Positions 3,312 to 61,700 of a DNA stretch of 64,000 nt are shown here, in pieces. The notes under the pieces are model-generated. The model worked only from the letters and a program-made list of their open reading frames with translations, searched no databases and was not told the origin of the DNA. Where the stretch lies: contig CAIOIC010000028.1 in the NCBI GenBank assembly GCA_903858275.1, forward strand, positions 93,173-157,172, written 5' to 3'. How positions within the stretch are numbered: the first letter of the stretch is position 1; each line of letters starts with the position of its first letter. The stretch is from an uncultured Verrucomicrobia subdivision 3 bacterium. Lineage in GTDB: Bacteria; Verrucomicrobiota; Verrucomicrobiia; Limisphaerales; UBA11358. The translations under genes were made by a program, and so were the position numbers.

Positions 3312-6300
3312 TCAGGGGGCGACTTGCAACCGATAGAATCGGCCGTTGGATTTGGTGTTATCGCTCATCTGGCAATGGCCGCTGGCATCGGCGGTGTTGG
3401 TGGAAACATTAAACCAAATTGCGAGGTCGTCTGTGGCTTGCAAAATGTAATTGGCCCCCGGCGTGCCGGTGCATGTCAGCACAAAGCTGGCGCTTTGGGG
3501 AGAACTGATTTTTGAACTGACGCCGGAGCTGGTGCTCGCGCTGATTTGGAGCACCGGCGGGGCGGAAACGATGGCTTTTGCCGATACGCCCGCGCTTGGA
3601 AGGGAATTAGCCTTCACCGTATTTCCATTGTGCTCGTCATCGTCGGAAGAGCGCTTGGCGACCACTTTCAGAACGGCGTTGGAACTGGTAACCGTGGCAC
3701 CCGGATTCTTGACCGTCAAGGCATACGACCCGGCATTGCTGGTCCGAACATTGGTGATGGTCAGCACGTTGGAGAACGAACCGGAAATGTTTCCCCCGTT
3801 GGTGAGCGCCACGCCGTCCTTTAACCACTGGTAGGTGAATGGTGCCGTGCCGGAAACCGCCGCGCGGAACACGGTGGTCGTTCCGTTAGTTGCCGTCCGG
3901 CTGCCTGCCTGCAACGTGAACACCGGCGGCAACCAGACCGTCAGGGTGGCGTTGGCACTCGTGACGCTGCCCGCTAGATTTGTGACCACCACCGAATAAG
4001 CTGCGGCGTCCGTCATTTTGGCGCTGGCGATGGTGTAGGTGAAATTCGTGGCGTTGGCAATGGCCACGCCGGCTTTGCGCCACTGGTAGCGCAGCGTTTC
4101 CGTGCCGGTGGCGGCGACGCTGAATGTCACGGCGTTGCTCGCCAGGATCCCCTGGTTTGCGGGTTGTGTGATGATGGCTGGCGGCACGATCACGGCAAGC
4201 GATGCGTTGGTGCTGGTGGCGCTGCCAGCCACGTTGCTGGCGGTCAGGCCATAGGCGCCGTTGTCATTGGTCGTGAGATTGGCGACCGTCAGCACGTTGG
4301 AGAATGAACCGGAAATATTTCCGCCGTCGGTGAGCGCCACGCCGTCCTTGAACCATTGGTAGCTGAACGGCGCGGTGCCGGAGACGATCGCGCGGAAAAC
4401 GGTGTTCGTGCCGGACTTCGCCCAGCGGCTCGCCGCCTGCACCGTGAACGCCGGTTTAATATTGACCGTCAGGGTGGCGTTGGAACTCGTGACGCTGCCT
4501 GCGAGATTTGTGACCACCACGGAATAAGCCGCGGCGTCCGTCGTCTTGGCGATCGCCAGCGAGAAGGCGGCGTTCGTGGCGTTGGCAATGGCCACGCCGG
4601 CTTTGCGCCACTGATAAAACAACTTCTCTGTGCCGCTGGTCGTCGCCGTGAACGTCACGGCGTTGCTCAAGGTGACGGATTGGTTCGTTGGTTGCGCGAT
4701 GATGGCCGGTGGCACGATTACGGCGAGCACGGCGTTGGTGCTGGTCGCGCTGCCGGCCACATTGTTGGCGGTCAGGTAATAGGCGCCGCTGTCATTCGTG
4801 ATGAGATTGGCGACCGTTAGCACGTTGGAAAGTGAGCCGGAGATATTTCCGCCGTCGGTGAGCGCCACGCCGTCTTTGAACCACTGGTAGCTGAACGGGG
4901 CGGTGCCGGAAATGGTCGCGCGGAAAACGGTGTTGGTGCCGGATTTCGCCCAGCGATTCGCGGCCTGCGCTGTGAACGCCGGTTTAATATTCACCGTCAA
5001 GGTGGCGTTGGAACTCGTGACGCTGCCCGCAAGATTTGTGACCACCACGGAATAAGCCGCGGCATCCGTTGTCTTGGCAATCGCCACTGAGAAGGCGGCG
5101 TTCGTGGCCCCGACAATCGCCACACCGGCTTTGCGCCATTGATACCGCAGCTGTTCCGTGCCGGTGGCGGCTACCGTGAACGTCGCGGCGTTGCTCAAGG
5201 TGACGGATTGGTTCGCCGGCTGCGTGATGATCGCCGGTGGCACGACCACTGTGAGCACGGCGTTGGTGCTGGTGGCGCTGCCGGCTACGTTGCTGGCGGT
5301 CAGGTAATAGGCACCGTTGTCATTCGTGATGAGATTGGCGACCGTTAGCACGTTGGAAAGTGAGCCGGAGATATTTCCGCCGTCAGCGAGCGCCACGCGG
5401 TCTTTGAACCACTGGTAGCTGAACGGGGCGGTGCCGGAAATGGTCGCGCGGAAAACGGTGTTGGTGCCGGATTTCGCCCAGCGGTTCGTTGCCTGCGCTG
5501 TGAACGCTGGCTTTACATTCACCGTCAGGGTGACGTTGGAACTCGTGACGCTGCCCGCGAGATTTGTGACCACCACGGAATAATTCGCTGCGTCCGTCGT
5601 CTTGGCTACCGCTAGCGAGAAGGTTGCGTTCGTGGCTCCGGCAATCGCCACGCCGGCTTTGCGCCATTGATAACGCAGCGTTTCTGTGCCAGTGGCGCTG
5701 ATGCTGAATGTCACAGCGTTGCTCAAGGTGACGGATTGACTGACCGGTTGGGTGGTGATGGCCGGCGGCACGAGCATGGTCAATGTGGCATTTCTGCTCG
5801 TGGCGCTGCCCACGGCGTTGCCGACGGTCACGGAATAATTGCCGGCCTCCGCCGCCGTCAGCCCGGAAAGTTTCAGGACGTTCGTGGTGGAGCCGGAAAT
5901 ATTCCCGCCCTCCGCGAGCGGCGAACCGTTTTTGAGCCACTGGAAATTCAGCGGCCCGCTGCCGGTGGCGGTCACGGCGAACGTGACGTTGGTTCCGATG
6001 ATGACCGCGCGGTTGGTCGGGTGTCCGGTGATGGCGGGTGGCGTGAAGACCGCCAGCTTGGCCACCGAACTGGTGATGCTTCCATAGATATTCGTGATGA
6101 TGACGGAGTAATTTCCGTTGTCGTTGGTCGAGACATTGGCGAGCGCAAGCGTGGGCAAAGTTGTGCCGGAAACCGTTGCGCCAATGATTAGGCCGCCTCC
6201 CGGCCGGACAGGCGGAACAGGCGGTTTCGGCATGCCCCACGGCGGCGGCGGAACCGACGGCGGAATGCTGGTGGTGGGGCCGCCATAAACGAGGGTGCCG

Positions 6301-9300
6301 TTGGTGAGAGGGGTTCCGTTTTTCAGCCACCGGTATGCCAGCGGGCCGGTGCCGGCGGCGGTGACGGTGAAGGTCGCCGTGTTGCTCACGGCAACATTCT
6401 GGCTGGCGGGCGGCATGATGATGATGGGCGAGGCGTTGATGGAAACATTTGCGTTCGCGCTGGTGACGATGCCGTAGGCATTGCTGACCACGACGGAATA
6501 AGTGTCCACTTCATTCGTTGTCAGCGCGGTAATGGTCAGGTTGGTGGTGGCGGAGCCGGAAATATTTCCGCCGTCCGCCAGCACGATGCCGTGCTGGAAC
6601 CATTGGTAGCTCAGCAGCCCGGTGCCGCTGGCGACCACGGCCAGATTGATCGTGCTGCCGAGTGCGCCGAATTGGTTGGCCGGTTGCGTGACGATGGCCG
6701 GCGGCAAGAGCACCGTGAGCACGGCGGCGGAACTTGTCGCGGTGCCGGCGGCATTGCTGACCACGACGGAATAGCTCGCGGCATCGGCAGCTGAAATGTT
6801 GTTGAGACTCAGTGTCGCCGCCGTCGCGCCGGCGAGGTTGGCGCTGTTTTTCTTCCATTGATAAGTCAGTGGCGCGGTGCCGCTGGCGGTTACGGTGAAC
6901 GAAACATTGCTGCCCGCCAGCGCCGTGACATCGGCGGGTGGCGTGTCAATCGTGGGTGGCACCAGCACCGTGAGGGCGGCGGAGGAACTGGCCGCGCTTC
7001 CGGCGATGTTGGTGACCACCACGGAATAATTACCGGCATCATTGGTGCTGACGGCGGAAAGGGTAAACAAATTGGAAACCGCACCGGCGATGGCGGCGCC
7101 GTTTTTCAACCATTGGAAGCTCAGCGGCGCGGTGCCGGCGGCGGTGGCGCTGAATGAAACTGGATTGCCCTGCACGACGCTGGTGCTGGCCGGAGCCGTG
7201 GTGATGGCGGGCGGCACCAGGACGGTCAGCGCGGCGGCGGCGCTGGTGGCGCTGCCGACGGCGTTGGTGACGGTGGCGGAATAACTCGCCGCGTCCGCCG
7301 CCGCAAGATTTGCCAGCGTCAGCGAGGCGGTGTTCGCGCCGGAGACATTGCCGCCGTTGGCGATGGCCGCGCCATTTTTCTTCCATTGATAAACCAGCGG
7401 CGCGGTGCCGCTGGCGGTGACGGTGAACGAAACATTGCTGCCGGCGATCAGTGTTGCGTCCGCCGGAGAAGTGATGATGGCGGGCGGCACGGAAACCGTG
7501 AGTGAAGCCGCCGGACTGGTGATGGTGCCGAGGCTGTTGCTGACGATCACGGAATAGCTGGCGGTCTCATTGGTGGTGACGGCGGAAAGAATCAGATTGG
7601 TCGTGCCGGCCCCGGAGACGTTCCCGCCGTCGGTGAGCGGAGAATTGTTTTTCAGCCAGAAATAGAACAGTGGGGCGGAACCGGCGGCGCTGACGGTGAA
7701 GCTGGCGTTCGCCCCGGCGACGACGGACAGATTGGCCGGCGGGGCGGTGATGGTCGGCGTGGCGACGATGGTGAGCGGCGCGACGGCGCTGGTCACGCTC
7801 CCGGCGGCGTTGGTGATGATCACGGAGTAATTGCCCGTGTCCGCCGCCGCCACGGCGGTGACGGTGAGCGCGCTGGTGGTGACGCCGGAATATTTTACGC
7901 CGTTGGCGATGGCTGCACCATTCTTGAGCCATTGATAGGCGAGCGGCGCGGAGCCGGTGGCGGTGACGGAGAAACTGGCGCTGACGCCGCCGGCGACGGC
8001 TTGCGCGGCCGGCTGGGTGGAGATCGTGGGTGGCACCAGCACCGTGAGGGCGGCGGAGGAACTGGCCGCGCTTCCGGCGATGTTGGTGACCACCACGGAA
8101 TAATTGGCGGCGTCATTGGTGCTGACGGCGGAAAGGGTGAGGACATTGGAAACCGCGCCGGGGATGGCGGCGCCGTTTTTTAACCATTGGAAGCTCAAGG
8201 GCGCGGTGCCGGCGGCGGTGGCGCTGAATGAAACTGGATTGCCCTGCACGACCGTCGCGTTGGTCGGCGCCGCCGTGATGGCGGGCGGCACCAGGACGGT
8301 CAGCGCGGCGGCGGCGCTGGTGGCGCTGCCGACGGCGTTGGTGACGGTGGCGGAATAACTCGCCGCGTCCGCCGCCGCAAGATTTGCCAGCGTCAGCGTG
8401 GCGGTGTTCGCGCCGGAGACGTTGCCGCCGTTGGCGATGGCACTGCCATTTTTCTTCCATTGATAAACCAGCGGTGCGGTGCCGCTGGCGGTGACGGTGA
8501 AAGTGACATTGCTGCCGGCAATCCGCGTAGCGTCCGCCGGTGAAGTGACGATGGCGGGCGGCACGGAAACCGTGAGCGCGGCGGCGGTGCTGGTGATGGT
8601 GCCGAGGCTGTTGCTGACGATCACGGAATAGCTGGCGGCGTCATTGGTGGTGACGGTGGAGAGAATCAGATTGGCCGTGCTGACGCCGGAAACATTGCCG
8701 CCGTTGGCGAGCGGGGAATTGTTTTTCAGCCAGAAATAGAACAGCGGCGCGGAACCGGCGGCGGTGACAGTGAAGCTGGCGCTGGCCCCGGCGACCACGG
8801 AAAGATTGGCGGGCGGGGTGGTGATGGTCGGCGTGGCGACAATGGTGAGCGGCGCAACCGCGCTGGTCACGCTGCCGGCGGCGTTGGTGATGACGACGGA
8901 GTAATTGCCCGTGTCCGCCGCGGCGGCGGCGGTGACGGTGAGTCCGCTGGTGGTGACGCCGGAATATTTTGCGCCGTTGGCGATGGCCGCGCCGTTTTTC
9001 AACCACTGATAGGCGAGCGGCGCAGAGCCGGTGGCGGTGACGGAGAAACTGGCGCTGACGCCGCTGGCCACAGCTTGTGCGGCGGGCTGGGCGGTGATGG
9101 TCGGTGGCAAAATCACCGTGAGCGCGGCGGCGGTGCTGGTGGCGGTGCCGACGCTGTTGCTGACGAGGACGGAATAATTTGCCGCGTCCGCCGCCGCCAC
9201 AGTGGTGAGGGTGAGCGTGGCGGTGGTGGCGCCGGCGATATTGCCGCCGTTGGCGAGCGGCGAATTATTTTTCAGCCAGAAATAGCCGAGCGGCGCGGTG

Positions 9301-9914
9301 CCGGAGGCGGTGGCGGTGAAGGTCGCGGTTTTTCCCGCGACGACATTGGTGGCGCTGGGGGCCTTGGTGATGGCCGGAGCCGTGGGCGTGGTGGTGCCGG
9401 TGATGGTGAGGGTGATGGTCTGCGAGAGCGTGGCGTTGCCGGGGCTGACCACGGTGACGGTGGTGGCATAGGTGCCGGCGGCGGTCGGCGTGCCGGTGAG
9501 AGTGCCGCCGATGGTTGTGGCATTGTTTACCCAGGAGGCGGTGAAGGTCAGTCCGGGTGGCAAAGTCGCAGTTGTGCTCTGGCCGTTCATCAGCAGAGTG
9601 GAGGTCACCGTGCCGGCGGACAGGAAAAAGTAATCATTCGCCGCCGCCTTGCTGCCGCCGCCGATGGAGACCGTGACGTTCTGGCTGAACGCCGTGCCCA
9701 CCGTGCCGCTGAACGTGCTGGGCGTGGTGTAGGTTGAGGTTGCGGCGGAAACCGCATCCACCGAGCCCAGCACCGCGCCGGTGCCGATGCCCCAGCGCAG
9801 GATGAAAGCGAAGGTGTTGCCGGTGGCCGGGTTGACGAGCATGGTCCGCACCAGCGGCAGCACCTGCAACAGGGCCGCTAGTATCACTGCCGGTTTTTGG
9901 AGGCGGATATGCAT
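3312..9914 (-). CDS. Giant secreted/surface protein with 21 tandem Ig-like (I-set type) domains (2200 aa)
   Basis: 6.6-kb ORF. Bipartite hydrophobic leader, then a He_PIG-like head (GTPTAAGTYATTVTV). I counted 21 modules of about 88-92 aa, each with a [YF][QFR]W strand motif and an NYSV-type motif. The C-terminal domain of about 85 aa ends FYRLQVAP. Confidence 0.9.
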   Translation of the reverse strand: MHIRLQKPAVILAALLQVLPLVRTMLVNPATGNTFAFILRWGIGTGAVLGSVDAVSAATSTYTTPSTFSGTVGTAFSQNVTVSIGGGSKAAANDYFFLSAGTVTSTLLMNGQSTTATLPPGLTFTASWVNNATTIGGTLTGTPTAAGTYATTVTVVSPGNATLSQTITLTITGTTTPTAPAITKAPSATNVVAGKTATFTATASGTAPLGYFWLKNNSPLANGGNIAGATTATLTLTTVAAADAANYSVLVSNSVGTATSTAAALTVILPPTITAQPAAQAVASGVSASFSVTATGSAPLAYQWLKNGAAIANGAKYSGVTTSGLTVTAAAAADTGNYSVVITNAAGSVTSAVAPLTIVATPTITTPPANLSVVAGASASFTVTAAGSAPLFYFWLKNNSPLANGGNVSGVSTANLILSTVTTNDAASYSVIVSNSLGTITSTAAALTVSVPPAIVTSPADATRIAGSNVTFTVTASGTAPLVYQWKKNGSAIANGGNVSGANTATLTLANLAAADAASYSATVTNAVGSATSAAAALTVLVPPAITAAPTNATVVQGNPVSFSATAAGTAPLSFQWLKNGAAIPGAVSNVLTLSAVSTNDAANYSVVVTNIAGSAASSSAALTVLVPPTISTQPAAQAVAGGVSASFSVTATGSAPLAYQWLKNGAAIANGVKYSGVTTSALTVTAVAAADTGNYSVIITNAAGSVTSAVAPLTIVATPTITAPPANLSVVAGANASFTVSAAGSAPLFYFWLKNNSPLTDGGNVSGAGTTNLILSAVTTNETASYSVIVSNSLGTITSPAASLTVSVPPAIITSPADATLIAGSNVSFTVTASGTAPLVYQWKKNGAAIANGGNVSGANTASLTLANLAAADAASYSATVTNAVGSATSAAAALTVLVPPAITTAPASTSVVQGNPVSFSATAAGTAPLSFQWLKNGAAIAGAVSNLFTLSAVSTNDAGNYSVVVTNIAGSAASSSAALTVLVPPTIDTPPADVTALAGSNVSFTVTASGTAPLTYQWKKNSANLAGATAATLSLNNISAADAASYSVVVSNAAGTATSSAAVLTVLLPPAIVTQPANQFGALGSTINLAVVASGTGLLSYQWFQHGIVLADGGNISGSATTNLTITALTTNEVDTYSVVVSNAYGIVTSANANVSINASPIIIMPPASQNVAVSNTATFTVTAAGTGPLAYRWLKNGTPLTNGTLVYGGPTTSIPPSVPPPPWGMPKPPVPPVRPGGGLIIGATVSGTTLPTLALANVSTNDNGNYSVIITNIYGSITSSVAKLAVFTPPAITGHPTNRAVIIGTNVTFAVTATGSGPLNFQWLKNGSPLAEGGNISGSTTNVLKLSGLTAAEAGNYSVTVGNAVGSATSRNATLTMLVPPAITTQPVSQSVTLSNAVTFSISATGTETLRYQWRKAGVAIAGATNATFSLAVAKTTDAANYSVVVTNLAGSVTSSNVTLTVNVKPAFTAQATNRWAKSGTNTVFRATISGTAPFSYQWFKDRVALADGGNISGSLSNVLTVANLITNDNGAYYLTASNVAGSATSTNAVLTVVVPPAIITQPANQSVTLSNAATFTVAATGTEQLRYQWRKAGVAIVGATNAAFSVAIAKTTDAAAYSVVVTNLAGSVTSSNATLTVNIKPAFTAQAANRWAKSGTNTVFRATISGTAPFSYQWFKDGVALTDGGNISGSLSNVLTVANLITNDSGAYYLTANNVAGSATSTNAVLAVIVPPAIIAQPTNQSVTLSNAVTFTATTSGTEKLFYQWRKAGVAIANATNAAFSLAIAKTTDAAAYSVVVTNLAGSVTSSNATLTVNIKPAFTVQAASRWAKSGTNTVFRAIVSGTAPFSYQWFKDGVALTDGGNISGSFSNVLTVANLTTNDNGAYGLTASNVAGSATSTNASLAVIVPPAIITQPANQGILASNAVTFSVAATGTETLRYQWRKAGVAIANATNFTYTIASAKMTDAAAYSVVVTNLAGSVTSANATLTVWLPPVFTLQAGSRTATNGTTTVFRAAVSGTAPFTYQWLKDGVALTNGGNISGSFSNVLTITNVRTSNAGSYALTVKNPGATVTSSNAVLKVVAKRSSDDDEHNGNTVKANSLPSAGVSAKAIVSAPPVLQISASTSSGVSSKISSPQSASFVLTCTGTPGANYILQATDDLAIWFNVSTNTADASGHCQMSDNTKSNGRFYRLQVAP
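3657..5768 (-). repeat. Four tandem 528-bp units (two Ig domains each) inside the giant gene
   Basis: Each unit begins PPAI(I/T)(T/A)QP and contains LRYQWRKAGVAI plus FSYQWFKDGVAL domains. Unit boundaries read at 5768 and 3657 give exactly 4 x 528 nt. Antisense ORFs ending at 4820 and 5348 are offset by 528. Confidence 0.85.
6960..9107 (-). repeat. Tandem duplication of a 1074-bp four-Ig-domain block (2 copies: 6960-8033 and 8034-9107)
   Basis: The PPTI(T/S)(A/T)QPAAQAVA block starts read at 9107 and 8033, and the next PPTIDTPP starts at 6959. Near-identical shadow ORFs are offset by exactly 1074 (7039-7386 vs 8113-8460, 7567-7932 vs 8641-9006). Confidence 0.9.
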
Positions 9915-9926
9915 AAGGTTATCGGG

Positions 9927-11213
9927 TTAGGGCACGACCATCAGGCGGTAAAACAGGCTGGGCGCGCTCGGGTTGTTCGAAATGGTGATCGGTGTGGGCG
10001 TGGCGGTGGGCGGATAGTTCGTGAACACGCCCCAGTTGGTGCTGGCAAGGACACCGTTCGTCAGCACCGTGTTGGTGAGGCCGGCGATGGGCGTGAAAGT
10101 GAACTGAAATTGTGTGCCGCCCTGAATCGAACCGCCCACCATCGGCGGCAACGGATTCGTCACCACCAGGTTGGCGATGGCGCTGGTCACGCTGCCCGCG
10201 CTGTTGGTGAGGATGACGGTGTAGGCCCCGGCCTGGCAGGCGCGGAGGTTGGTGAAGGAGAGCGAGGCATTCGTTCCGCCGACAATGCTGGTGGTGATCA
10301 GGTTGGTGGTGATCCGCCATTGGTAGGCGAGGGCGGGGAAACCTCCGGCGGTGATGGCGAGGCTGCCGGAACCGCCGGCCACGTTGGTGAAACTGACGGG
10401 GGAATTGGTGATGACCGGCGGCTGCCAGACCGTGAGCGTGGCAAAGGAGCTGGTGACCGAGCCGGAGGAATTGGTGATGATGACCCGGTAATTACCGGTG
10501 TTCGTCAGCTGAATATTCGTCAGCGTGAGCGAGGTGTTCGTGGCGTTGAGCAGCGCGGTGTTGGTGTTGAAATACCACTGATAATGCAAGGGTGCAGTGC
10601 CGGCGGTGACGGTGAACGTGGCGTTGCTGCTGACGTTGTTGGTCAGGCTGACGGGTTGGTTGGTGATGACGGGGGGAGAACCGGCTGGTAAAATTGTTAT
10701 CCAAAAATTTGTTTCTACCACTAATGATAAATAAGTAATTATGACGTGAACATAGAGGTTGGTAACGGGTGTTGTTGGGGTTCCATAAATTGCTCCATAG
10801 ATTGGCTTGGGGGTACCGCCGATATTTAAGTCGTAAAATTTGAAGACTAAACCGGCAGGCATACAGCTTGTGGTTGAATTTCCGTTTAGTAACGCAGTAG
10901 AAACAACGCCCGACTTATTGGTGAGAACACAAAAAGCTCCAGAATTTCCACCGTTGTTTGTGATCGCCACGTTGTTAGTGAAGTAGATTCCAGCAGTTCC
11001 TGTAAAATTTGTTGAATTTGTAAAAATAACAGGCGCTGACGCTCCTGACACTGCATCCACTGCGCCCAGCGCGGCACCAGTGCCAATGCCCCAGCGGAGG
11101 ATAAACGCAAAGGTGTTGCCGGTGGCGGGGTTGATAAACAGGTTCCGCACCAGCGGCATGAGCTGCAAGGCTGCCGCCAGAAAAACCGGAAGTGTTTGGG
11201 TGAGTCTTTTCAT
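9927..11213 (-). CDS. Secreted Ig-like domain protein, short paralogue of the giant protein (428 aa)
   Basis: Same leader (LPLVRN..NPATGNTFAFILRWGIGTGAALGAVDAVSGA), a He_PIG-like head, two Ig-like modules (LHYQWYF, LAYQWRI) and a C-terminal domain ending FYRLMVVP. It stops 12 nt before the giant gene start. Confidence 0.85.
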   Translation of the reverse strand: MKRLTQTLPVFLAAALQLMPLVRNLFINPATGNTFAFILRWGIGTGAALGAVDAVSGASAPVIFTNSTNFTGTAGIYFTNNVAITNNGGNSGAFCVLTNKSGVVSTALLNGNSTTSCMPAGLVFKFYDLNIGGTPKPIYGAIYGTPTTPVTNLYVHVIITYLSLVVETNFWITILPAGSPPVITNQPVSLTNNVSSNATFTVTAGTAPLHYQWYFNTNTALLNATNTSLTLTNIQLTNTGNYRVIITNSSGSVTSSFATLTVWQPPVITNSPVSFTNVAGGSGSLAITAGGFPALAYQWRITTNLITTSIVGGTNASLSFTNLRACQAGAYTVILTNSAGSVTSAIANLVVTNPLPPMVGGSIQGGTQFQFTFTPIAGLTNTVLTNGVLASTNWGVFTNYPPTATPTPITISNNPSAPSLFYRLMVVP

Positions 11214-16026: not shown

Positions 16027-16095
16027 GGATTTGTTAAGAACATAATCTGTGGCGGGGCAATTCACCATGGAAAAATGGAGCGTTGCCTGCTTCCC

Positions 16096-16135
16096 TGATT
16101 TCGGAGCGCGGGACTGTGTCCCGCCGCCTCTGGAA
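16096..16135 (+). repeat. Truncated third copy of the 110-nt repeat family (first hairpin only)
   Basis: GATTTCGGAGCGCGGGACTGTGTCCCGCCGCC aligns with GATTTGAAAACGGAGCGCGGGTCTGTGACCCGCAGCGG of the copies at 57250 and 58571. The stem GGGAC/GTCCC replaces GGGTC/GACCC. Confidence 0.6.
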
Positions 16136-30147: not shown

Positions 30148-30237
30148 TCTTGGCGTTCCTGGCGCCTTGGCGGTTTAAACTCAAATTCCGGTCGCAGGTT
30201 TATTTCGTGTAATCCGTGTATTTCGTGGTGAAAATTG
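30148..30237 (+). repeat. REP-like direct repeat, copy A (about 90 nt)
   Basis: TCTTGGCGTTCCTGGCGCCTTGGCGGTTTAAACTCA...GCAGGTTTATTTCGTGT...GTATTTCGTGGTGAAAATTG is nearly identical to copy B. Confidence 0.85.
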
Positions 30238-30403: not shown

Positions 30404-30490
30404 TCTTGGCGTTCCTGGCGCCTTGGCGGTTTAAACTCAGCTTCCGATCGCAGGTTTATTTCGTGTGCCTGTATTTCGTGGTTGAAATTG
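30404..30490 (+). repeat. REP-like direct repeat, copy B (about 87 nt)
   Basis: Same sequence family as 30148-30237, with a 36-nt identical core TCTTGGCGTTCCTGGCGCCTTGGCGGTTTAAACTCA. Confidence 0.85.
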
Positions 30491-34971: not shown

Positions 34972-35040
34972 GGCCGAAGTTTAGCGAAAGCCGGCCTAAA
35001 TGTCATCCTTCCAAAATTTTCTGCCATGGTGTCCAAATTG

Positions 35041-35112
35041 GGTGGGGCGAGCGTCCTCGCGAGCCGTCGTGAGCCTTGGATTTGAGCGGCTCGCGAGGAC
35101 GCTCGCCCCACC
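35041..35112. repeat. Perfect 26-bp inverted repeat (large hairpin) followed by a T-run
   Basis: GGTGGGGCGAGCGTCCTCGCGAGCCG (35041-35066) and its exact reverse complement (35087-35112) enclose a 20-nt loop, followed by GTTTTTTTAAA. Confidence 0.9.
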
Positions 35113-35184
35113 GTTTTTTTAAATTGGGACAATGCCAAATTTTCTCATTTCCTTTTCCGCGCCGCTGGCAGATAAGATGGAGTA

Positions 35185-56781: not shown

Positions 56782-57150
56782 TCAAACCTTTTCCGTGCTT
56801 TTTGCGGCTTCGATGAGGTTCCAGAACTTGGGGTTTTCCTGCAAAGCTTGGTCTTCGCCGACCTTGATGCCCGAGCGGAAGAAGAAATCCTTCAATGTGT
56901 GCCGGCTCAGGATGCGGTGGACGAGCACGCCGAGCGCGTGGCGTTCAAAATAAACCCGGTAATCGCCCAGGCGGAACCGGTGCAGGATGTGGCCGTCGCT
57001 TTCGAGCTTGCCGAAATCCTCCAGCTCGCTGCCGATGACGTGCTGCGGCAGGCCGCGGAAATCGCCAAGGATCTGGAGCTGCAAATCCTTGGGCATCCGC
57101 GCGAGTTCAGACGCGGCGGTGGGCGTGAAGATGATTTGAAACGTGTTCAT
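56782..57150 (-). CDS. RelE/ParE-family toxin-like protein with a C-terminal extension of about 35 aa
   Basis: The start is taken at ATG 57148-57150. FTPTAASELARMPKDLQLQILGDF...RFRLGDYRVYFE...VLVHRILSRH matches the ParE/RelE pattern. Confidence 0.65.
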   Translation of the reverse strand: MNTFQIIFTPTAASELARMPKDLQLQILGDFRGLPQHVIGSELEDFGKLESDGHILHRFRLGDYRVYFERHALGVLVHRILSRHTLKDFFFRSGIKVGEDQALQENPKFWNLIEAAKSTEKV

Positions 57151-57249
57151 TTTTACCAAAACTCAGCGTTTCGACAATTTGCTTTGCCGGCAACGCTGCT
57201 CGTCAATGGAAGAATTCTATAAGACGACGGATAATAATCAAGTCATCGG

Positions 57250-57359
57250 GTAGTATCCCCATTTGAAAGCGGAGCGCGGGTCTGTGACCCGCAGCGGTTT
57301 GAATTGAAGGGAGTCGTGCGGCGGCTCACCGGGCCGCGCTCCAAAATCAAGACATCACC
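57250..57359 (+). repeat. 110-nt structured repeat, copy 1
   Basis: Gap-free alignment with 58571-58680 gives 93/110 identical by my count. It contains the hairpin GGGTC-TGT-GACCC and a closing pair GGAGCGC / GCGCTCC. Confidence 0.85.
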
Positions 57360-57457
57360 AGCCGTCGGACTGAACCTTGGCAACGGCGGGAAAATCTTGG
57401 TTTCCTCCCGCCTTCACGGCTTGCTTCGGCGTGGCTTGCTGTGGCTAAATAACCGTC

Positions 57458-58144
57458 ATGAGCACCGCCCCTCTCACTCCCGCCCAGCTTGCCGCGTATA
57501 TTGACCACACGCTGCTCCCGCCGGACGCCTCGCTCGCGCAGATTGAACAGCTCTGCGCCGAGGCGCGGGGCCACGGTTTTTTTTCCGTCTGTGTCAACGG
57601 CTCATGGGTCGTCTCCGCTCGGCACTTTCTCGACGGCACGGATGTGAAGGTCGCCACCGTCGTCGGCTTTCCGCTGGGCGCGATGAGCGGCGATGTGAAG
57701 CGCTACGAAACCGAGGTGGCCATTGATGATGGCGCGCACGAGATTGACGTGGTGCTGAACCTCGCGCGGCTCAAGGCGGGCGAGGATAAATACGTTTTCC
57801 GCGAACTCGTGGATGTGGTGGAGGCCGCCGATGAACGCACCGTGAAAGTGATTTTGGAAACCTGCCTGTTGACGGACGAGGAAAAAGTCCGCGCCTGCCT
57901 GCTCGTCGTGGATAGCGGCGCGCAGTTTGTGAAAACTTCCACCGGTTTTAGCACCGCTGGCGCGACGATTGCCGATGTGAAGCTGATGCGCGAAACCGTT
58001 GGGCCGAAATTCGGCGTGAAAGCCTCCGGCGGTGTCCGCGATGCGCAGACGGCGCTGGCACTGATTGCCGCCGGGGCGACGCGGTTGGGCACATCTTCCG
58101 GCATTGCGATTGTGAACGGGCTGGCTGGCGGCGGGAGTTATTGA
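57458..58144 (+). CDS. deoC: Deoxyribose-phosphate aldolase
   Basis: IDHT.L, VCV, EID.V.N, VKVI.ET, KTSTGF blocks. Confidence 0.93.
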   Translation: MSTAPLTPAQLAAYIDHTLLPPDASLAQIEQLCAEARGHGFFSVCVNGSWVVSARHFLDGTDVKVATVVGFPLGAMSGDVKRYETEVAIDDGAHEIDVVLNLARLKAGEDKYVFRELVDVVEAADERTVKVILETCLLTDEEKVRACLLVVDSGAQFVKTSTGFSTAGATIADVKLMRETVGPKFGVKASGGVRDAQTALALIAAGATRLGTSSGIAIVNGLAGGGSY

Positions 58145-58187
58145 TTGATAACCATCGCCTTGGGTGGCGGGAGGTCTACCGGCATTA

Positions 58188-58490
58188 TCAATCAACAATT
58201 TCCGTATGTTCCCTCACCTTGGGTTCGATGAGGAGTTCCGCATCCGAAGATTGATAGCTATGGTAGCTCAAGATGCTTTCCGGATGTTCCCGCACCCGAA
58301 AGGTGATTTTGATGCGTTGGTCACAGTCGCAGACCAATAAAAAATCTGCTTCGAAAATCCGCTCCAGTCCACTTTCCAGTTGTTGTTCCTTGACGCACTT
58401 GAAGTCCAACGTCCGGGTCGGTCCCACATGCAGCTTGTAGCAATTCTTGCACTTGTAGTGGTAAGAATCGATTTGTATTGGCGTGATCAT
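58188..58490 (-). CDS. Hypothetical 100-aa Cys-containing protein (CxxC ... CxC), lower GC than neighbours
   Basis: ORF with CKNC (aa 14-17) and CDCD (aa 54-57). About 48% GC over five 60-nt lines counted by hand, versus about 60% in flanking genes. No recognised family. Confidence 0.45.
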   Translation of the reverse strand: MITPIQIDSYHYKCKNCYKLHVGPTRTLDFKCVKEQQLESGLERIFEADFLLVCDCDQRIKITFRVREHPESILSYHSYQSSDAELLIEPKVREHTEIVD

Positions 58491-58570
58491 TATCGTTCAC
58501 CTCATCCAATCTCCAACCCCATTTTACCGTCTCCCAGTTGATGGATTCTGTCAAGCGGTGCCCATTACGC

Positions 58571-58680
58571 GTAGTGTCCCGATTTGAAAACGGAGCGCGG
58601 GTCTGTGACCCGCAGCGGATTGATTTGCAGGGGGACGTGTTGCGGCTTACAGAGCTGCGCTCCGAAATTAGGACATCACC
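58571..58680 (+). repeat. 110-nt structured repeat, copy 2
   Basis: See copy 1. Same orientation, 85% identity, no indels. Confidence 0.85.
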
Positions 58681-58705
58681 CATTTACGACTGAATGCCCT
58701 TCGCT

Positions 58706-61700
58706 TCAATCTTCCGCAAAAAGATATTCCAGATCCGTTGCCGTGAGGCTGCGGGCAAAACCTTCTTCCCCGAGCACGTCGGCGATCGTCTGCGCCTTGC
58801 TCTGCTGCAGTTCCCAGATTTTTTCCTCCACCGTGCCGGGCGCGATGAGGCGGTAGGCGTTCACCGTCTGCGTCTGGCCGATGCGGTGCGAGCGGTCGAT
58901 GGCCTGCGCCTCCACCGCCGGGTTCCACCACGGATCGTAAAGCACCACATAGCTGGCATTCGTCAGGTTCAGGCCGGTTCCCGCCGCGCGCAAACTCAGG
59001 AGGAACACGCTCCCGCCGGTGTCTTTCTGGAAATCGTTGACGACCGACTGCCGGTCCTTGGTCTGGCCGGTGAGGATGTGCGTGCGGATGTTGCGGGCGT
59101 GGCATTCCTTTTCGAGAATGTTCAGCATCTGCACGAACTGCGAGAACACGAGCACCTTCTGCCCTTCGGCCACCAGCGAATCGAGCAATTCAAATAAAGT
59201 ATCCGTCTTGCCGGAAGCCGTGTCGCTGCCGACGAGCGACGGATGGCAGCACACCTGCCGCAACCGCGTGAGCGCGGCGAGCACATGCATCTTGCTCTTG
59301 TTGAGCCCTTGCGTGGCCACGGCTTGCTCGATGGTTTCGCGGCTGCGGCGGAGTTCGGCGAGATACAATTTCCGCTGCTCGTCGCCGAGCGGGCAATCGC
59401 GCCGCTCCTCGATGCGGTCGGGCAGATCCTTCGCCACATGCTTCTTCAAGCGGCGCAGTAGCAGCGGGCGCAGCTTGGCGGAAAGTTTGCGGCGCGCGAT
59501 GCGCTGGACGGACTCGGCGTTTTCGCCGCCCTTCGGCTCGTAGGTGTCGAGGAATTGTTCCTGGTTGCCGAGATAATTCGGCTGGATGAAATCCACGATG
59601 CTCCACAAGTCCAGCAGCCGGTTTTCCAGCGGCGTGCCGGTGAGCGCGATTTTGTTTTCGCACTTCAGCTGCTTCACCGACTGCGTGACCTGCGCGCCGG
59701 GATTCTTGATGAACTGCGCCTCGTCCAGAATGACGGCGCGGAAGGCGAACTTGTGAAATTCCTCCAGGTCGCGCCGGAGCAGCGCGTAGTTGGTGACGAT
59801 GATGTCGTGTTCGGGTATCTGCTTGCGCAAATTGTGACGCGCGGCGCCGCTCTCGAGCACGAGCACCTTCATGCCGGGCGTGAACTTTTCTGCCTCGCGC
59901 CGCCAGTTGTGCAGCACGGATGCCGGGCAGATGACGAGCGATGGCTTGGGATTCTTCGTGTTGCGTTCCTTGAGCCATGCGAGCCAGGTCAGCGTCTGGA
60001 GCGTTTTGCCGAGGCCCATGTCGTCAGCCAGGATGCCGCCGAGCCGGACCTGCACGAGGTGCACCAGGAAATCAAAGCCGTCCTTCTGATAGGGGCGGAG
60101 TTCCGCCTGCAGGCATTTGGGCAGGTTCGCGGATGGAACGCCTTTGAAATCGCGGACGCGGTCGCGCAAGGCCTGCGCCTCCGGCGAATCGACGAAGCGC
60201 TGCAAGCCGTCCTCGTCCAGATGCGCGACGTGTTCGAGGCCGACTTTTTGCGGCACGGCAATTAAACCGTCCACGCCCATGTCCGCCATCGCTTCGTGCG
60301 CGCCCTGCACGGCGTTCGTGTCGAGCTCCACCCAGCCGGCATTCGGCAATTTCACAAAACGGCTCGTCGCGGCCGCGAGGCGTTCGAGGTCGGATTTGGA
60401 AAGCTTCATGCCTTCCGCTTCCCACTCGGCGGAAACCGCGAGCCAGTCAATGCCGCTGCCCTTCACGACGAGGCGCGGCTTGAGCCGGTGCGGCGTGAGG
60501 AACAGCCGGTGGAACGCGGCGTTGCCCAGAAATTCCGCTTCCGTCGGTTTCGCGGCCCATGCCTCGGCGAGCGAGCCGAGGAAATTTTCATTCGCATCGC
60601 CGATCCATAAGCCCGGTTCCTGCATGAACCAGTCGAGTTTGCGCAGCCATTGCACCGCCGGTTCGAGGCGCGGGTCGTCGAGGATTTCCGGTTTTTCGCC
60701 CGGCTTGATCATCCGGTTGTGCGGCACCCATTCATGGCTGTTCCAGACCCAGGTGCTCTTGTCGCGTTCGCTTTTCGCGAGCAGCCGCAATTGCACCGTG
60801 TCGTCCAGCAGCTCGAATACGAACTGCGGCGCGGCGGCGTGCGCCACGCAGAGCTGCTCCCAGTCCACGCCGTGATTGGCCTGCGACTTGCGCAAATGCA
60901 GCAGCAACCGGTGGCTGAGCTTGCGCACGGGCACGGAGGGTTTCTGCGCCAGATATTTCAGCACGCCGGTCGGCGGCGCGTTGCGCAGCAGGAAAAATTC
61001 GTTGCCCACGAGCGCCACCGGCGACTGGCGGTTGAAAAACTTCGCTTCCGCCACGGAATGATTCAGGCCGTCCGGCAGCAGGATGCGGTGCGTGAAGGAC
61101 AGTTCCTTGTCGCCGTTTTCCAGATGCGGTGCGAGGGCGACGATGTGGCCGTGGAAGAACAGCGGCTGGCCGTTCGCGGCGGATTCGAGGCGGTTGGTGT
61201 GGCCCCAGCGCGCGAGCCATTGGAGCAGTTCGGCATCGGCCAGTAGCAGCGTCGTCTCGTTGCTGGCCCGCTCGCGGTGCGTGTCGTAAATCCACTGGAT
61301 GAACTCCCAGTCCCACGGCGTGAACAGCTCCTGCTCATGCGCGGCGCGGACGACGAGGTCCACCAAATCGTGTAGCGAACGGGCTTTTTCGCCGGTGCGC
61401 GGGCGGAGCAGGAGAAATTGCACCGCCAGCCGGAAGCGCGCCGGTTCCTGGGCATCCGGTTGCGGCTTGCAGACCACGCGGAGCGTGGCGCGCGGCGTGT
61501 CCAGGTGCAGTGGGGTGGGCGGCGAGAGCCAGTTTTCCAATTCCTTCACCAGCCGCAGTTCCTGTTCGGCTTCCTCGGCGCGGGCGAAACGGTCAAGGCT
61601 CGCGTGCGGCTGCAATTCCGGCGGCACGGAGCGCTTGGCGCGCAAAAAGAGAAACGCCAGTTCCTCCAGCCGGGCCTTGCCGGTGGTCGCGAGCATCTTC

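Follow-up and report, generated by a model that had tools for sequence, protein, structure and literature searches.

What kind of element is the structured repeat of about 110 nt that occurs in two full copies and one partial copy on contig CAIOIC010000028.1 of an uncultured Verrucomicrobia subdivision 3 bacterium (assembly GCA_903858275.1)? In the 64,000-nt stretch analysed here (the window), every copy lies upstream of a minus-strand gene, and a sequence-only reading had proposed a functional RNA or protein-binding DNA element with fixed promoter-proximal placement. We find instead that the repeat is a new family within a known kind of DNA, that of repetitive extragenic palindromes (REPs), REP doublets forming hairpins (REPINs) and miniature inverted-repeat transposable elements (MITEs), and not a promoter-specific regulator. 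It is probably non-autonomous mobile DNA made of two nested modules, a REP doublet within a MITE-like shell.

The two full copies, at 57250-57359 and 58571-58680, agree at 93 of 110 ungapped positions, exactly as first counted by hand; a repeat search returns them as 57247-57359 and 58568-58680 at 84% identity. Exact matches to the 22-mer GGAGCGCGGGWCTGTGWCCCGC stand at three positions of the window (16103, 57271 and 58592), where 100 shuffles give an expectation of 0.00. A covariance model of the 25-nt unit, R1, scored on the 64 kb, finds exactly five units at 30-45 bits, the next best match reaching 13 bits, and these five form two inverted pairs and one singlet. A full copy runs from outer end through a 25-nt unit, a 22-nt spacer and an inverted 25-nt unit to a second outer end, and each unit, GGAGCGCGGGTCTGTGACCCGCAGC, can also form a hairpin by itself, its stem 7 bp long and its loop 3 nt. 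The parts are these:

57242 to 57249 and 57361 to 57368: octamers GTCATCGG and GCCGTCGG flanking copy 1, matching at 6 of 8 positions, at best a decayed target duplication.
57250 to 57270, plus strand: left outer inverted shell end of copy 1, GTAGTATCCCCATTTGAAAGC, fitting the shell-end pattern GGTAGTGTCCYAATTTGAAA with 2 mismatches and folding onto 57343-57359.
57271 to 57295, plus strand: left REP unit of copy 1, GGAGCGCGGGTCTGTGACCCGCAGC, with hairpin GCGGGTC-TGT-GACCCGC; R1 score 45.1 bits, E = 2.6e-09; equal to the family consensus.
57296 to 57317, plus strand: spacer of copy 1, 22 nt, of the short (20-23 nt) class.
57318 to 57342, minus strand: right REP unit of copy 1, inverted, reading GGAGCGCGGCCCGGTGAGCCGCCGC on the minus strand; R1 score 32.4 bits; C10/G18 stem variant.
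57343 to 57359, plus strand: right outer inverted shell end of copy 1, AAAATCAAGACATCACC.
58562 to 58569: left target-site duplication of copy 2, CCATTACG; the right flank has the same word plus one T.
58570 to 58591, plus strand: left outer inverted end of copy 2, CGTAGTGTCCCGATTTGAAAAC, folding onto 58664-58679.
58592 to 58616, plus strand: left REP unit of copy 2; R1 score 45.1 bits.
58617 to 58638, plus strand: spacer of copy 2, 22 nt, of the short class.
58639 to 58663, minus strand: right REP unit of copy 2, inverted, reading GGAGCGCAGCTCTGTAAGCCGCAAC on the minus strand; R1 score 30.5 bits.
58664 to 58679, plus strand: right outer inverted end of copy 2, GAAATTAGGACATCAC.
58680 to 58688: right target-site duplication of copy 2, CCATTTACG.
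16086 to 16127, plus strand: half-element, a shell-end remnant CCTGCTTCCCTGATTTC and one REP unit GGAGCGCGGGACTGTGTCCCGCCGC (16103-16127); R1 score 39.2 bits.

Copies 1 and 2 have most of their spacer in common, and in the right unit of copy 1 the C10/G18 variant keeps the local hairpin while mismatching the left arm. The half-element has no partner arm within 140 nt. All three copies had been taken to share one orientation, which does not hold: at 16103 the junction of ATTTC with GGAGCGC and the tail CCGCCGC both match what the full copies have in their right-hand half, so that the singlet is an inverted half-element relative to copies 1 and 2. The closing helix GGAGCGC/GCGCTCC, the hairpin GGGTC-TGT-GACCC and its variant GGGAC-TGT-GTCCC at 16103 are all present. 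Helix and hairpin can form as the sequence-only reading suggested, but the minimum-energy fold of a whole copy is a single long hairpin in which the two arms pair together (copy 2 as a single strand folds at -55.4 kcal/mol, z = -5.7). The small local hairpin is an alternative fold, yet it is the one backed by the comparative data.

Those data come from a family that extends far beyond the window. Scanning species-representative genomes for exact GGAGCGCGGGNCTGTGNCCCGC yielded at least 120 loci (numbered in the range L001-L120; L121-L129 are contexts of RayT homologues, and L131 and L135 are loci on viral contigs) in at least 55 species-level assemblies, nearly all labelled Verrucomicrobiota, the labels among the loci listed being mostly Limisphaerales, Pedosphaera or 'subdivision 3'. 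A few of the loci listed stand under Acidobacteriota, Bacteroidota or Proteobacteria, or under obviously wrong labels such as Klebsiella. Exact units in assemblies labelled as one of these three phyla are those of L005, L086, L096, L018, L050, L101 and L115, L005 being a perfect doublet; they may reflect mis-binning or transfer between phyla. Together with the window, the fetched sequence comes to 0.89 Mb and holds 216 units at up to five mismatches, against 0 in shuffled sequence. Adjacent units are mostly paired in inverted order (69 of 80 pairs), tail to tail with the GGAG ends outside, and their spacers fall into two length classes, 20-23 nt, to which both window copies belong, and 53-62 nt (mode 56-57). 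We also noted head-to-head dimers without a spacer (GCGCTCC directly followed by GGAGCGC) at four loci of one assembly (L066, L074, L113 and L117) and at L094, with a CCT/AGG variant as the left unit. In lake metagenomes, contigs break at the unit, where the summed word depth is about 24 times that of the flanks. Of the RNA runs searched for the stretch none contains it, and matches come from lake DNA metagenomes only.

Comparison of 85 distinct units, with 500 shuffles and slid-partner controls, supports the small hairpin strongly. Stem positions pair in 95.1% of cells, against 83.8% in shuffles and 30-45% with slid partners; double changes occur in 55 cells, where shuffles give 11.8 +/- 2.7 (0 of 500 reached this number), and four of the seven stem pairs covary. 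The structure-preserving change seen between window copies is thus one of many: at least ten Watson-Crick stem variants coexist, among them GGT/ACC, GCT/AGC, GGA/TCC, GGC/GCC, ACT/AGT, AGT/ACT and CCT/AGG. In 33 of 76 doublets the right arm has C10/G18 where the left has G10/C18, a combination that keeps both small hairpins and gives the long hairpin two mismatches. RNAalifold, given 48 long doublets, likewise predicts two local hairpins with nothing between them, not the long hairpin.

The spacers behave quite differently from the arms. Right arms, which the scan did not preselect, are 0.81-0.85 identical, whereas spacer identity is 0.38 between assemblies (0.36 in the shuffled control) and has a median of 0.44 within one assembly, where a few pairs reach 0.70-0.80. 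Spacers show no excess of structure either (mean folding z = -0.08). With arms conserved, spacer lengths fixed and spacer sequences close to random, what is kept is the arms and the distance between them, not the sequence that intervenes. Selection acts on the local hairpins and on their spacing, and not on spacer sequence.

Where the copies sit bears directly on the proposed promoter-proximal role. In the window, the gene distances were read correctly: copy 1 precedes the deoC ATG by 98 nt and the start of the ParE-like gene by 88-99 nt, and copy 2 precedes the 100-aa gene by 78 nt. Genes around the copies in other genomes were called with a simple caller based on G+C content at third codon positions (GC3), which recovers the obvious genes of the window. 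The 97 interior elements are dispersed and mostly intergenic, with 71 extragenic between classifiable genes and 26, about a quarter, inside open reading frames (ORFs). The 71 extragenic copies comprise 41 co-directional, 16 divergent and 14 convergent contexts, which matches the intergenic background of 344, 91 and 97, respectively. Orientation with respect to transcription is not biased (singlets, 11 with and 8 against; asymmetric doublets, 4 and 5), and neighbouring genes have no family in common: 69 complete neighbours match 89 Pfam families, none more than twice, without a transposase or nuclease among them. The position upstream of three minus-strand genes in the window is therefore not a property of the family. 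The sequence-only reading had itself held that further copies without positional bias would mark a generic REP-type element, and no such bias was seen; the copies have what defines a REP in general, namely a 25-nt palindromic unit in dispersed, mostly intergenic copies. What survives of the earlier view is that the repeat is structured and not random debris, while the promoter-specific part falls with the background-like contexts.

Many of the copies inside ORFs lie in frame in real proteins. In-frame doublets occur at L071 (4965-5068), L070 (2979-3038), L060 (3579-3650), L111 (3459-3563), L017 (6939-7011), L093 (2787-2856) and L088 (2843-2934), where Pfam domains span the insertions; the proteins holding them are an SNF2 helicase, a glycine dehydrogenase (GcvP), a MutY-like glycosylase, a Mur ligase, a DAO oxidoreductase and two restriction enzymes. 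The doublet in the SNF2 helicase (L071) lies between motifs I and Ia. The unit also occurs on six viral contigs. On one of them, from IMG/VR, two short-spacer doublets flank a head-tail adaptor gene (L131, 2870-3470) between major head and tail genes, a phage module identified by PHROGs (major head protein, E = 3.5e-34; adaptor; tail protein), and the same contig holds a third unit (L135). Such in-frame and phage copies point to insertional, selfish DNA rather than to a dedicated regulator. The doublet is found dispersed in many genomes, at unrelated sites, within coding sequences and in a phage.

The outer part of the window copies is a module in its own right. Ends of the form GGYAKTGTCC-YR-ATTT stand inverted at both sides of seven elements. 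Shell-type doublets are the two window copies, L016, L030 and L085, and in most doublets elsewhere the flanks are unrelated. Two shells enclose a different inner palindrome, one at L114 and one in the window:

35023 to 35136: related shell element of 114 nt between purE and an MFS gene, with ends GCCATGGTGTCCAAATT and AAATTGGGACAATGCC and an inner palindrome made of GGGGCGAGCGTCCTCGCGAGCCG and its complement.

Direct repeats around the seven shell elements are perfect over 8-9 bp in four cases, carry a single-base indel in one and are degenerate in two. The clearest target-site duplication in the window is that of the related element, a perfect 9-bp repeat AAATTTTCT at 35014-35022 and 35137-35145; L085, L016 and L114 are flanked by AAAATCCG, GCCGGCCC and CGTTCAGG, respectively. 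The same ends around a different inner palindrome, together with the direct repeats, argue that the shell is a separate MITE-like module that makes target duplications and has an exchangeable interior. No transposase lies beside shell ends in the window or the loci, although no dedicated search for a parent insertion sequence was made.

Among known elements, the shell most resembles bacterial MITEs whose interiors form hairpins, such as the Correia elements of Neisseria. It shares with them a length of about 110 nt, terminal inverted repeats, target-site duplications, the lack of coding capacity, intergenic positions near gene starts and ends, and a whole element that forms a long hairpin. It differs from Correia-type MITEs in its target duplication of 8-9 bp, in ends unrelated to those of known MITEs and in an interior that can be a REP doublet or another palindrome. 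Readings of the repeat as attC, as a dif/Xer site, as a CRP site or as an uptake sequence were dropped, because their core motifs or arrangements are not present.

Bare doublets leave a different footprint. Direct repeats of at least 5 nt are no more frequent at their flanks than in a re-paired control, and a weak 4-mer signal arises from the five shell-type copies in the set; the immediate flanks of bare doublets show a preference for C...G. The doublets of L001 and L044 lie inside other outer inverted repeats. Those of L044 (1780-1930 and 3850-4000) stand between genes of a microcompartment operon (bacterial microcompartment (BMC) shell proteins, acetate kinase and PTAC), each inside an outer inverted repeat of CACGAAT-like words (TTAACCACGGATG...CACGAATG). 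A TTCGTG-rich tract like this outer repeat is also present after the RayT gene in L122. Genes found between neighbouring doublets encode acetate kinase, BMC shell proteins, PTAC, Fic, PIN and MsrB, and no transposase is among them.

These features suggest how the two modules might work. The inner module is the pair of inverted GGAGCGCGGGTCTGTGACCCGCAGC units, tail to tail, each able to form its own 7-bp, 3-nt-loop hairpin; the outer module is the MITE-like shell, with its GGYAKTGTCC-YR-ATTT ends and 8-9-bp target-site duplications, able to carry other inner palindromes. A DDE-type transposase would move the shell in trans. The bare doublet would be spread by a hairpin-recognising enzyme that acts on single-stranded DNA and leaves no duplication, for which a RayT-like enzyme of the HUH/Y1 type, or some other enzyme, is a candidate. 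Effects on neighbouring genes would be incidental to the landing site; copy 2, for example, could act as a terminator or stabiliser at the 3' end of the SNF2 gene.

Several observations weigh against this account of nested mobile modules. No transposase linked to the doublet or the shell was found, and at three independent kinds of locus the unit does not flank RayT, the only Y1 family encountered in these genomes. Neither copy 1 nor copy 2 yielded an empty site, and a lake relative about 5% divergent also has an element at the copy-1 site; copies 1 and 2, only 84% alike, would accordingly be old insertions. The left arm of the collected copies was required by the scan pattern to match exactly, and part of the arm conservation is thus ascertainment. 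Lastly, spacers that differ so widely within one genome, unlike those of classical REPINs, allow that the arms are maintained by some host function. Comparisons of sites elsewhere gave no empty site either: the L023 orthologue of the ParE-like gene has no doublet in the 199 nt available, but divergence of the intergenic DNA is too great for an empty site to be called there; the region around purE in L085 could not be aligned; and synteny between L003 and L038 stops at the gene.

The doublets have close relatives in the literature. Di Nocera, De Gregorio and Rocco (2013, PMC3733652) described GTAG- and CGTC-tagged palindromic repeats, including families of the verrucomicrobium Opitutus terrae, and, judged from sequence features, the doublets here match the REP dimers of that study. 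Shared features are units of 20-40 nt, each with a stem of 6-9 bp and four unpaired bases at one of its ends; a predominance of inverted dimers, with tail-to-tail spacers similar in length and different in sequence; 'heterodimers' whose arms differ by compensating stem changes; the nesting of some families in longer palindromes; and frequent in-frame intragenic copies, most numerous in O. terrae. The tag, however, is GGAG here rather than GTAG or CGTC, with position 2 a G in 75 of the 76 partner arms and in none a T. The CGTC superfamily has an 8-9-bp stem starting with A/T pairs and a 4-5-nt loop, whereas the present unit has no CGTC, a G+C-rich 7-bp stem and a 3-nt loop; here, moreover, a single 25-nt unit is common to at least 55 species-level genomes. 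In-frame copies encode peptides (GARVCDPQ, PERGSVTRS, LRVTDPRS, AAGHRPALR and CGSQTRAP) that do not appear in the table of intragenic REPs in PMC3733652; nor does the unit string occur in its supplementary files or in the literature searched.

One alternative holds that the doublets are canonical REPINs copied by a single-copy, highly conserved RayT, a Y1 transposase of the HUH type. We think it possible but unlikely. The anatomy fits the REPIN-RAYT systems of Pseudomonas and Enterobacteria (Bertels and Rainey 2011, PMC3116915), which likewise consist of two inverted REP hairpins around a spacer, about 70-110 nt in all, occur in hundreds of copies per genome (as the window density of about one per 25 kb would lead one to expect here) and make no target duplication. 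Like the present doublets, REPINs persist over long periods mostly by vertical descent (PMC3116915). The tag GGAG is one base from the GTAG of RAYT-associated REPs (PMC3733652), and a Y1_Tnp gene does occur in REP-bearing genomes. It was found in one REP-bearing locus, L036 (assembly CAIYOY; Pfam E = 3.7e-23), the only hit when the loci were searched by tblastn and phmmer with sequences of E. coli RAYT and IS608 TnpA and with the L036 protein itself. Its protein has more than 7,900 homologous matches, of which the best 120 show identities of about 80% or more and are named 'REP element-mobilizing transposase RayT' by the Joint Genome Institute (JGI), and one homologue, L121, lies on the same 276-kb contig as the REP locus L023.

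The neighbourhood of RayT speaks against its acting as in those systems. No GGAG unit, at up to seven mismatches, occurs within 3 kb of RayT in L121-L129, none flanks the gene in L036, and the repeat is absent from the contexts of the homologues P0088 and P0027. In every case (L036, 2700-3420; L121, 2650-3560; L122-L129) the gene is bracketed instead by a small hairpin CAACYCTKWMAGRGTTG on each side and, beyond it, by a larger hairpin whose 7-8-bp stem varies compensatorily between genomes (CCTAGGG, CCTGGGG and CCCGGCG) and whose loop of 15-18 nt begins with TAGC and ends with CAA. These private hairpins are found nowhere else in the roughly 0.9 Mb of REP-bearing loci. Since no unit stands beside RayT, the adjacency that defines REPIN-RAYT systems is lacking for the RayT family examined (L036 and L121-L129). 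In addition, the partner arms have GGAG and never GTAG, and spacers within a genome are mostly unrelated, without clustering around a master sequence.

A bolder variant drops the adjacency. The GGAG hairpin pair, instead of being only a passive parasite, could be a very old replicator or docking site, phylum-wide in scale, with a conserved dimeric factor that recognises both arms and measures how far apart they lie. The best candidate would be RayT acting in trans on a hairpin unlike its own flanks, and preferential landing in the centres of palindromic elements would yield the nested shell. Near-invariant arms across at least 55 species, strict spacers of about 22 or 56-57 nt and free spacer sequence would follow if such a factor exists; we offer the proposal tentatively and would bet against it as it stands.

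A host-maintained element in cis, compatible with mobility, appears somewhat less likely still. Here the hairpin pair would be the docking site of a conserved dimeric host protein concerned with the nucleoid or topology, as are gyrase or IHF at the bacterial interspersed mosaic elements (BIMEs) of E. coli, or would work at the RNA level, its hairpins ending transcripts or stabilising them, with arms selected at each site. Arms conserved over so many assemblies, spacers that are random in sequence even within one genome and fixed in length, the absence of a linked transposase and the doublets between genes of one operon in L044 would all suit this explanation. So would the setting of copy 2, which the sequence-only reading had not remarked on: it starts about 25 nt past the stop of the SNF2 gene (58706), on the same strand, and on its minus strand the left-arm hairpin is followed by CTCCGTTTTC, a terminator-like site at 58614-58596, about 90-110 nt after that stop, with CTCCGUUUUC next to the hairpin. 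Terminator-like sites in the region number two, against a shuffle mean of 2.4, and a hairpin followed by CTCCGTTTTC occurs only on the minus strand of the window's subfamily; most family members outside that subfamily lack the T-tract. Several points count against host maintenance. Copies favour neither gene ends nor gene starts nor one orientation, many are translated in frame in unrelated enzymes, some are in phage, and the coexisting stem variants favour a structural requirement over a base-specific one.

A promoter-proximal regulatory RNA or operator of the adjacent minus-strand genes, although it would fit the conserved, covarying structure and the location of all three window copies 35-99 nt upstream of a minus-strand gene start, is very improbable given background-like contexts, the absence of orientation bias, the inverted partial copy, unrelated neighbours, copies inside coding sequences and an Rfam comparison that gave nothing at the gathering threshold for the whole window and nothing relevant at E <= 10 for 57150-58750.

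Other repeats in the window are of different kinds. A very long run of 255-, 273- and 528-nt periodic repeats (families D1-D10) occupies 3600-10700 and is most likely a giant repetitive surface-protein gene. Two direct repeats of 63 nt, which are 95% identical and lie 256 nt from each other, stand in a non-coding stretch at 30148-30210 and 30404-30466.

For annotation, the 110-nt copies are best masked as repeat DNA and not described as promoters, small RNAs or operators of the genes downstream. Because similar REP doublets have been described in this phylum since 2013, the finding adds to a known theme and is not the start of a new one. The family nevertheless offers a clean and widely sampled case of a REP unit conserved over a large part of a phylum. 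It illustrates selection on local hairpins and their spacing without selection on the sequence between them, and REP doublets that are nested in a second mobile shell, lie in frame in essential enzymes and reach phage. Should the enzyme behind it prove not to be a neighbouring RayT, the question of how such repeats are maintained would sharpen, and Verrucomicrobiota provide a useful second system, beside Pseudomonas and enterobacteria, in which to ask what maintains them.

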